From Escherichia phage A6-6, in sequence record PQ510734.1: 64,000 bases of DNA; one strand, written 5' to 3'. The notes beneath the pieces were generated by a model that did not search any database, had not been told where the DNA came from, and worked only from the letters and a program-made list of their open reading frames with translations. A program made the translations under genes and the position numbers. Positions 9,197 through 10,903 of this stretch are shown in pieces; within the stretch, counting starts at the first letter, position 1; each line of letters opens with the position of its first letter.

Positions 9197-10903
9197 ATGG
9201 CTTTTACAGTTGATATAACTCCTAAAACACCTACTGGAGTTATAGATCAGACTCAGCAGTTTACTGCTACACCCAGTGGTCAAACTGGAGATGGACCTAT
9301 TACATATGCTTGGACTGTGGATGATGTTCCACAAGATGGAGCTGAAGCAACTTTTAGTTATGTACTAAAGGGACCTGCCGGTCAAAAGACTATTAAAGTA
9401 GTTGCAACAAATACGGTTCCAGAAGCTGAAGCTGAAACAGCAGAAGCTACTACAACTATCACAGTTCAAAATAAGACACAAACGACCACCTTAGCTGTAA
9501 CTCCTAATAGTCCTGACGCCGGAGTAATCGGAACAGCTATTGAATTTACGGCTACTTTAGCTTCGCAGCCATCGGGCGCAAACGCTACTTATCAATGGTA
9601 TGTAGATGATTCTCCTGTGGGCGAAGCAACTAACGCTACGTTCAATTACACTCCTGCCGAAAGCGGGGTAAAAAGAATTAAGTGTGTGGCTCAAGTAACT
9701 GCGACAGATTATGATGCACTAAGCGTTACTTCTAATGAAGTATCACTGACTGTTAATAAAAAGGAACAGACAACTACTTTGGCAGTAACTCCTGATAGTC
9801 CTCCAGCAGGAGTAATCGGAACCCCAGTTCAATTTACTGCTGCCTTAGTTTCTCAACCCGCTGGAGCATCTGCTACATATAAATGGTATGTTGACAGTTC
9901 TCAAGTTATTGGAGAAACTAACGCTACGTTCAATTACACTCCAACTACAAGTGGAGTAAAAATAATTAAATGCGTAGCCCAAGTAACTGCAGAAAATTAC
10001 AATGAAAAGGAAGTTACTTCGAATGAAGTATCTTTGACTGTTAACAAGAAAACACAAACGACTACCCTAGCTGTAACTCCTGCTAATCCTGGTGCCGGAG
10101 TAATTGGAACAGCTGTTGAATTTACCGCCGCTTTAGCTTCTCAACCTGATGGAGCATCTGCTACGTATCAGTGGTATGTAGATGATTCACAAATTAGTGA
10201 AGCAACTTCCGCTACATTTAGCTATACTCCTACTACAATTGGAGTTAAAAGAATTAAATGCGTAGCTCAAGTAACCGCGGCAGATTATGATGCAAAGGAA
10301 GTTACTTCGAATGAAGTATCATTAACGGTTAATAAGAAGACAATGAATCCACAGGTTACATTGACTCCTCCTTCTATTAACGTTCAGCAAGATGCTTCGG
10401 CTACATTTACTGCTAATGTCACTGATGCCCCAGAAGAAGCGCAAATTGAATATTCATGGAAGAAAGATTCTTCTCCTGTAGAAGGGTCAACTAATGTATA
10501 CACCGTTGATACCTCATCTATTGGAAGTCAAACTATTGAAGTTACTGCAACTGTTACTGCTGCTGATTATGATAGCAAAACTATTACAGCAGAAGGTCAA
10601 GTTCAGGTAACTGATAAAGTTGCTCCAGAACCAGAAGGTGAATTACCTTATGTTCATCCTCTTCCACACCGTAGCTCAGCTTACATCTGGTGCGGTTGGT
10701 GGGTTATGGATGAAATCCAAAAAATGACTGAAGAAGGTAAAGATTGGAAAACTGAAGATCCAGATAGTAAATACTACCTGCATCGTTACACTCTTCAGAA
10801 GATGATGAAAGATTATCCAGAAGTTGATGTCCAAGAATCACGTAATGGATATATCATTCATAAAACTGCTTTAGAAACTGGTATCATCTATACCTATCCA
10901 TAA
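9197..10903 (+). CDS. hoc: Hoc outer capsid decoration protein, expanded variant
   Basis: N-terminus (MAFTVDITPKTPTGVIDQTQQFTATPSG) and C-terminal capsid-binding region (PYVHPLPHRSSAYIWCGWWVMDEIQKM...GIIYTYP) match T4 Hoc as recalled; 568 aa against about 376 in T4. Confidence 0.9.
   Translation: MAFTVDITPKTPTGVIDQTQQFTATPSGQTGDGPITYAWTVDDVPQDGAEATFSYVLKGPAGQKTIKVVATNTVPEAEAETAEATTTITVQNKTQTTTLAVTPNSPDAGVIGTAIEFTATLASQPSGANATYQWYVDDSPVGEATNATFNYTPAESGVKRIKCVAQVTATDYDALSVTSNEVSLTVNKKEQTTTLAVTPDSPPAGVIGTPVQFTAALVSQPAGASATYKWYVDSSQVIGETNATFNYTPTTSGVKIIKCVAQVTAENYNEKEVTSNEVSLTVNKKTQTTTLAVTPANPGAGVIGTAVEFTAALASQPDGASATYQWYVDDSQISEATSATFSYTPTTIGVKRIKCVAQVTAADYDAKEVTSNEVSLTVNKKTMNPQVTLTPPSINVQQDASATFTANVTDAPEEAQIEYSWKKDSSPVEGSTNVYTVDTSSIGSQTIEVTATVTAADYDSKTITAEGQVQVTDKVAPEPEGELPYVHPLPHRSSAYIWCGWWVMDEIQKMTEEGKDWKTEDPDSKYYLHRYTLQKMMKDYPEVDVQESRNGYIIHKTALETGIIYTYP
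9470..10325 (+). repeat. three tandem ~285-bp in-frame repeats, each one Ig-like module of Hoc
   Basis: Units start near 9470, 9755 and 10040, each encoding NKK-TQTTTLAVTP...VKRIKCVAQVTA...SNEVSLTV. Confidence 0.85.

Follow-up and report, generated by a model that had tools for sequence, protein, structure and literature searches.

A 568-aa Hoc with five Ig-like modules, three of them diverged copies of one repeat, in the T-even Escherichia phage A6-6

The window, meaning the whole stretch of 64,000 nucleotides of Escherichia phage A6-6 (PQ510734.1) that was analysed, is a segment of a Tequatrovirus (T4-like) genome. Shigella phage ESh26 aligns to the whole of bases 1-25000 at 97.7%, and hundreds of further T-even phages match the same segment at 95-99%. 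MG010123.1 ('Staphylococcus phage SAJK-IND', 32 kb, labelled an S. aureus phage) also matches the window, at 97.4% over 25 kb, and this record is probably mislabelled or contaminated. The gene at 9197-10903 is identified from its sequence as hoc, which encodes a head-decoration protein of T-even phages. The features of the locus, from upstream to downstream, are the following:

6945-8456, minus strand: uvsW, upstream of inh and hoc.
8507-9187, plus strand: inh (inhibitor of prohead protease), a 226-aa open reading frame that adjoins hoc upstream and fixes the synteny, being placed as T4 inh and the annotated inh of YUEEL01.
9197-10903, plus strand: hoc coding sequence, 568 aa and a stop codon, defined by phmmer matches to T4 Hoc chains and by an annotated coding sequence in ESh26 of equal position and length.
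9197-9472, plus strand: Ig-like domain 1 (aa 1-92), weakly matched by the repeat-module HMM (29 bits), predicted by AF2 as all-beta (pLDDT ~86-93), 89% identical in nucleotides to T4 domain 1.
9473-9760, plus strand: repeat module R1 (aa 93-188), PKD/Ig-like, Pfam PKD (PF00801) E = 3.7e-13 in 3 stretches, 98% identical in nucleotides to module 1 of Solly.
9761-10048, plus strand: repeat module R2 (aa 189-284), closest to module 2 of Solly, at 91% nucleotide identity.
10049-10336, plus strand: repeat module R3 (aa 285-380), the nearest of R1-R3 to the single domain 2 of T4 (88% nucleotide identity, dS 0.28).
10337-10624, plus strand: fifth Ig-like module (aa 381-476), counterpart of T4 domain 3, Pfam I-set/Ig_3 at aa 385-469, HMM 32 bits, pLDDT ~84-92, 86% nucleotide identity to T4 domain 3.
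10625-10900, plus strand: C-terminal capsid-binding domain (aa 477-568), 97% identical in nucleotides to T4, dN/dS 0.03, aligned to T4 Hoc residues up to 376 (cryo-EM entries).
10908-10935, plus strand: terminator-like GC hairpin and T-run (AAGGGGCTTCGGCCCCTT, then TCTTCATTTT) directly 3' of the hoc stop codon, a pattern match only, from a consensus scan.
11483-12487, plus strand: rnlB, downstream of hoc past two small open reading frames (24.3/24.2-like).

The gene order uvsW / inh / hoc / 24.3 / 24.2 / rnlB, as seen when the locus is compared with T4, ESh26, and YUEEL01, is the T4 order in reverse. The identity of the gene as hoc, which a preliminary description of this DNA had already proposed, is borne out by this synteny, by the match of the 568-aa protein to T4 Hoc chains in the PDB (5vf3_Z, 8t1x, and others; phmmer, E = 6e-220), and by the near-identity of the C-terminal domain to that of T4. 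In a Foldseek search of the PDB, the crystal structure of RB49 Hoc was not near the top of the matches, which were generic strings of Ig-like or cadherin-like domains; assignment to the Hoc family thus relies on sequence. Between inh and uvsW the window has a gap of 50 nt (8457-8506), where T4 has the homing endonuclease gene segE (5058-5675 of the compared T4 sequence). The open reading frame that follows hoc (10993-11208) encodes 71 aa and is annotated as DUF2774 in the Shigella phage KNP5; T4 gene 24.3, at the same place, encodes 56 aa (171 nt).

The protein is composed of five Ig-like modules and a C-terminal capsid-binding domain, an architecture that had been put forward earlier and is supported by the reading frame, the HMM, and the AF2 model. 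T4 Hoc (PDB 5VF3, 8T1X; NP_049793) resembles it in gene position and in carrying a string of Ig-like modules on a C-terminal anchor; however, T4 Hoc has 376 aa, as first given (hoc being 1131 nt), and three Ig-like modules, and the excess in the window protein amounts to exactly two more modules of the domain-2 type, three rather than one. An HMM built from R1-R3 finds three strong matches in the protein (~187 bits each) and the two weak ones to domain 1 and to the module before the C-terminal domain, and these scores indicate that all five Ig-like modules are distantly related and that three are close paralogues. The Pfam families found in the protein are PKD, PKD_4, I-set, and Ig. From an alignment of 33 sequences, AF2 predicts five all-beta domains, with a pLDDT of ~90 over aa 1-475. 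The pTM is 0.47, so that the geometry between domains is not predicted, and the model of the C-terminal domain (pLDDT <50) was discarded. In sequence, nearly all columns of the C-terminal domain are invariant across 33 Hocs of all three length classes (376, 472, and 568-570 aa), including YIWCGWWVMDE, and phmmer aligns aa 285-568 with T4 Hoc residues 93-376, a span that takes in the C-terminal domain of T4 (about residues 281-376), the aromatic cluster included.

The three central modules form a single tandem array. Tandem Repeats Finder detects it at 9473-10340, as one array with a period of 288, 3.0 copies, 76% matches, no indels, and a score of 979, and a second repeat search places three copies at 288-nt spacing, with 73% and 77% identity to the first copy. 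Both searches confirm the in-frame tandem triplication of one Ig-like module that the preliminary description had noticed. In codon register R1, R2, and R3 are 96 aa each; the period is therefore 288 bp rather than the 285 bp (about 95 aa) first given, and the array had been ended ~11 nt short. Random 288-nt stretches of the window are identical at 0.26 +/- 0.03 of positions (maximum 0.37), as against 0.74-0.79 for the repeats (z = 17-18). The three-copy repeat is real and lies far beyond chance.

The copies had also been called near-identical, which does not hold. Pairwise identities among R1, R2, and R3 are 74/78/79% in nucleotides (R1 and R2 being the 74% pair, R2 and R3 the 79% pair) and 74/81/77% in amino acids; identity falls to 58-65% at third codon positions, and the longest stretch of identical bases in register measures 27 nt. 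Near-identity that extends to synonymous sites, as in a recent or unstable duplication, is not what is found. By the Nei-Gojobori method, dS between the modules is 0.81-1.00 and dN/dS 0.16-0.19; for scale, dS between the window and T4 is 0.15 in the C-terminal domain and 0.29 in domain 1. Synonymous divergence among the three copies is thus close to saturation, which marks them as old and rules out a recent duplication of the module, and purifying selection keeps each of them functional. Judged by this scale, the copies either predate much of the divergence among these phages or were joined from diverged sources; part of the high dS between modules could stem from sequence imported from divergent phages, and not from the time the copies have spent in place. 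Measured against the domain-2 module of T4, dS is 0.28 for R3, 0.53 for R2, and 0.94 for R1.

A Hoc of this length is ordinary, already known, and not unique to this phage. T-even Hocs come in lengths of 281, 376, 472, and 568 aa (568-570), a standing polymorphism of Tequatrovirus and Mosigvirus to which the three-module allele belongs as one class. The best 120 protein clusters comprise 82 of 376/378 aa, 30 of 468/472 aa, and 8 of 568/570 aa; in the HMM search, all 376-, 472-, and 568/570-aa Hocs have one, two, and three strong repeat modules, respectively, with weaker matches to the two flanking Ig-like domains. No four-module Hoc (~664 aa), and nothing longer than 570 aa, occurs among these 120 clusters. 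Sixty evenly spaced records of the 656 that match in GenBank give a similar series (~1131 nt, n=35; ~1419 nt, n=15; 1707 nt, n=2; one, two, and three modules), and in this sample the 376-, 472-, and 568-aa forms account for about 67%, 29%, and 4%. It had been supposed that T4 and its relatives would lack a five-domain Hoc; this is true of T4, but a minority of close relatives have one. Hoc homologues are known to carry 1 to 10 Ig-like domains in strings (PMC10385173), and the number and arrangement of Hoc domains vary among T4-like phages (PMC11150434); such general statements of varying domain number were what the literature search returned, and the explicit 376/472/568 series was not found there.

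The closest relatives of the window protein share its full architecture. The Shigella phages ESh26 and ESh34 and the Escherichia phages YUEEL01, UGKSEcP1, and UGKSEcP2 have the same five Ig-like modules and C-terminal domain, the same module boundaries, and the same locus: ESh26 has a 568-aa coding sequence at matching hoc coordinates, YUEEL01 (RefSeq) has a 1707-nt 'Hoc-like head decoration' gene, and ESh34 a 1707-nt match. UGKSEcP1, UGKSEcP2, and several sequences from NCBI, ENA, and Logan encode Hocs of 568-570 aa, the best protein match being 98% identical, and metagenome assemblies contain this architecture too. The window gene is 89% identical in nucleotides to ESh26 hoc, and it differs in sequence from this 568-570-aa group within the modules. 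The two-module Hocs of 472 aa (such as those of Solly, teqskov, wV7, and Mosigvirus moskry; two-module alleles are thus present in Mosigvirus as well) have one module fewer than the window Hoc; their module 1 is 95-98% identical in nucleotides to R1, and their module 2 combines stretches of R2 and R3 in a mosaic. Still longer is the Hoc of Serratia phage Muldoon, with 1174 aa and 10 Ig-like domains (PMC10385173); it too is a capsid anchor with a variable number of Ig-like domains, although its domains belong, as far as compared, to a different repeat family. At the short end, the Hocs of PhiPNJ-9 (PMC11853027) and Escherichia phage vB_Eco_EH2 have two Ig-like domains and hold the conserved capsid anchor in common with the window Hoc.

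In T4, the C-terminal domain of Hoc is bound in the middle of the gp23* hexamers, of which a head has 155, and the Ig-like domains extend as a fibre of ~18 nm (PMC10385173, PMC9958956). A T4-type Hoc occupies the hexamers of the mature head as single copies and is dispensable for growth. By analogy, the C-terminal domain of the window protein would bind the centre of the gp23* hexamer, with the string of Ig-like modules projecting as a fibre, and the two added modules would lengthen this fibre from ~18 nm to ~27 nm if each domain spans ~4.5 nm. They would also supply two further candidate modules for binding glycans or surfaces, and they bring the net negative charge to roughly twice that of T4 Hoc (calculated as -30 at pH 7, with a pI of 4.46, compared with -14). 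That copy number may tune reach or avidity, as was first suggested, is plausible. Altered adherence to mucus or host surfaces, or altered dispersion of virions, may likewise follow from the extra modules.

Evidence from other phages bears on which of these effects would dominate. In PhiPNJ-9, binding to fucosylated MUC2 depends on residues S183, L184, and T185 of Hoc domain 2 (PMC11853027). The names and numbers of these residues match the window protein, where they are present in a strand, NEVSLTVNK, that occurs three times (aa 180-188, 276-284, and 372-380). This beta strand is conserved, so that mutating these residues may do no more than unfold the domain. Domain 2 of PhiPNJ-6, taken in isolation, failed to co-precipitate MUC2, and binding was mapped to domain 1 (PMC11150434); the two reports thus disagree, between phages, on binding by domain 2. 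Given the PhiPNJ-6 result, extra modules of the domain-2 type may add no glycan binding, and they could act mainly as spacer and charge, making virions disperse or cluster according to pH or keeping antibodies off the capsid. The charge of the window protein acquires its interest from the model of Fokine et al. 2023 (PMC10385173), in which acidic Hoc is proposed to control virion clustering and dispersion and to sense pH, and it fits such a role. The MUC2-binding residues of PhiPNJ-9 speak against a pure spacer, as does the reported attachment of Hoc domains 2 and 3 to E. coli surfaces (cited in PMC10385173); so does the placement of the variable module positions, 17/25 of which fall in predicted loops, as on a binding surface, while 54% of the module is strand. 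A role confined mainly to spacing and charge is possible but rather doubtful, and the two kinds of function are compatible rather than exclusive.

The modules of different phages are related by position and are, at the same time, patchworks. Modules at the same position in different phages have on average 0.86-0.92 amino-acid identity, compared with 0.77-0.83 for different positions. Concerted evolution of the copies is ruled out, because same-position modules between phages are on average more alike than modules within one protein. Strict positional orthology is ruled out too, since patches have been shuffled. The variable patches of the modules occur in many combinations across Hocs, and in 48-nt windows the best match switches among R1, R2, and R3. 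In such windows, the single module of T4 is 94% R2-like, then 100% R3-like, then 92% R1-like, and module 2 of Solly is 96-98% R2-like, then 100% R3-like. A PHI permutation test on 11 module sequences is significant for recombination (0/2000). The Hoc of EH2 (OZ034684.1, 601-1446), with 281 aa, begins with aa 1-38 identical to domain 1 and continues in a repeat module, the join being at a common TY-W motif. This natural chimera of D1 and R, joined in register and one Ig-like module shorter than T4 Hoc, gives a direct example of recombination between paralogous modules removing a module. The 'variant Hoc' of PhiPNJ-9 in the literature may be a chimera of the EH2 kind.

Exchange also appears to involve whole alleles. 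Between the window and ESh26, the repeat modules (9473-10336) are 81-85% identical in nucleotides, with dS of 0.5-0.64, whereas the remainder of hoc has dS of 0.08-0.22 and the surrounding 25 kb is 97.7% identical. A hot spot of module divergence between otherwise near-identical genomes points to allele exchange between phages, and it suggests that the hoc modules have been replaced by recombination with other phages. In the mechanism proposed here, modules would be gained, lost, or converted in patches by in-register homologous recombination between modules, and Hoc alleles would pass between co-infecting phages. The exchange of patches and the EH2 chimera show that the copy number of modules shifts through recombination over evolutionary time, while the individual events are inferred; the recombination invoked in the preliminary description is apt on that scale, and as a description of recent change in this genome it is not.

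The direction of change need not have been an expansion. If the three-module form were ancestral in the clade, the common 376-aa Hoc, including that of T4, would be a contraction, and to call the window gene expanded would be to read the history backwards. The R2-like/R3-like/R1-like succession in the T4 module is what unequal crossing-over would leave, the EH2 chimera is a contraction that did happen, and single-module Hocs hold many patch combinations. However, Hocs with one module predominate, the Hoc of the more distant RB49 has three Ig-like domains and a C-terminal domain (PMC10385173), and gene conversion also yields patchworks with no change in length. An ancestral three-module form is, on this evidence, unlikely.

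The account that explains the locus best as a whole, and which can be held with considerable confidence, is that of a long T-even Hoc allele whose old module copies are under purifying selection, whose modules recombine, and whose product would form a T4-like fibre. A further extension is speculative and more likely wrong than right by a wide measure: the one-, two-, and three-module alleles and the 281-aa chimeras may constitute a balanced polymorphism, in which recombination of modules serves as a cassette system for fibre length (and with it charge and the valency of glycan-binding modules) and for combinations of loops, so that alleles would fit different mucosal or host-surface niches and the three-module form would show measurably stronger or different mucus retention than that of T4. 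In practical terms, Hoc is a display platform for T4 vaccines and a proposed factor in mucus adherence in phage therapy. The practical value of the present allele is modest, and naturally occurring alleles, which range from 2 to 5 Ig-like modules and have freely recombined loops, are ready material for relating fibre length and valency to gut retention and adherence.

A recent tandem triplication, with near-identical repeats, an unstable gene, and heterogeneous copy number in phage stocks, is very improbable. Related phages do vary from one to three modules, the modules carry recombination patches, and the public assembly of KNP5 is gapped exactly in the region of the array. Against this stand the 74-79% identity and dS of 0.8-1.0 between copies. 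Efficient recombination in T4 reportedly needs roughly 50 bp of identity, a figure attributed to work by Singer and colleagues in 1982, and the longest in-register run here falls short of it. Module identities also follow position across phages, and the architecture is inherited in independently sequenced phages, the allele being found in at least eight other sequence clusters. The suggestions of recent origin and of possible instability are, on the same grounds, not sustained. That an assembler mis-expanded the repeat is next to impossible: tandem repeats are prone to mis-assembly, and KNP5 has a run of N in this region, but the units differ at ~1 base in 4, so that reads of at least 100 nt place uniquely, the reading frame of 568 codons is intact, and the identical architecture recurs in complete genomes obtained independently and in metagenome assemblies of several origins. 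The hoc repeat should not, therefore, be taken as a sign of recent rearrangement, instability, or mis-assembly. In KNP5 itself (NC_055713.1), a run of N of ~1 kb (~1730-2730) stands where the repeat modules belong, and only the 3' 588 nt are annotated as Hoc, the assembly having failed in the array; the 2072-nt span of its hoc is accounted for by this run of N and is ruled out as a longer allele.
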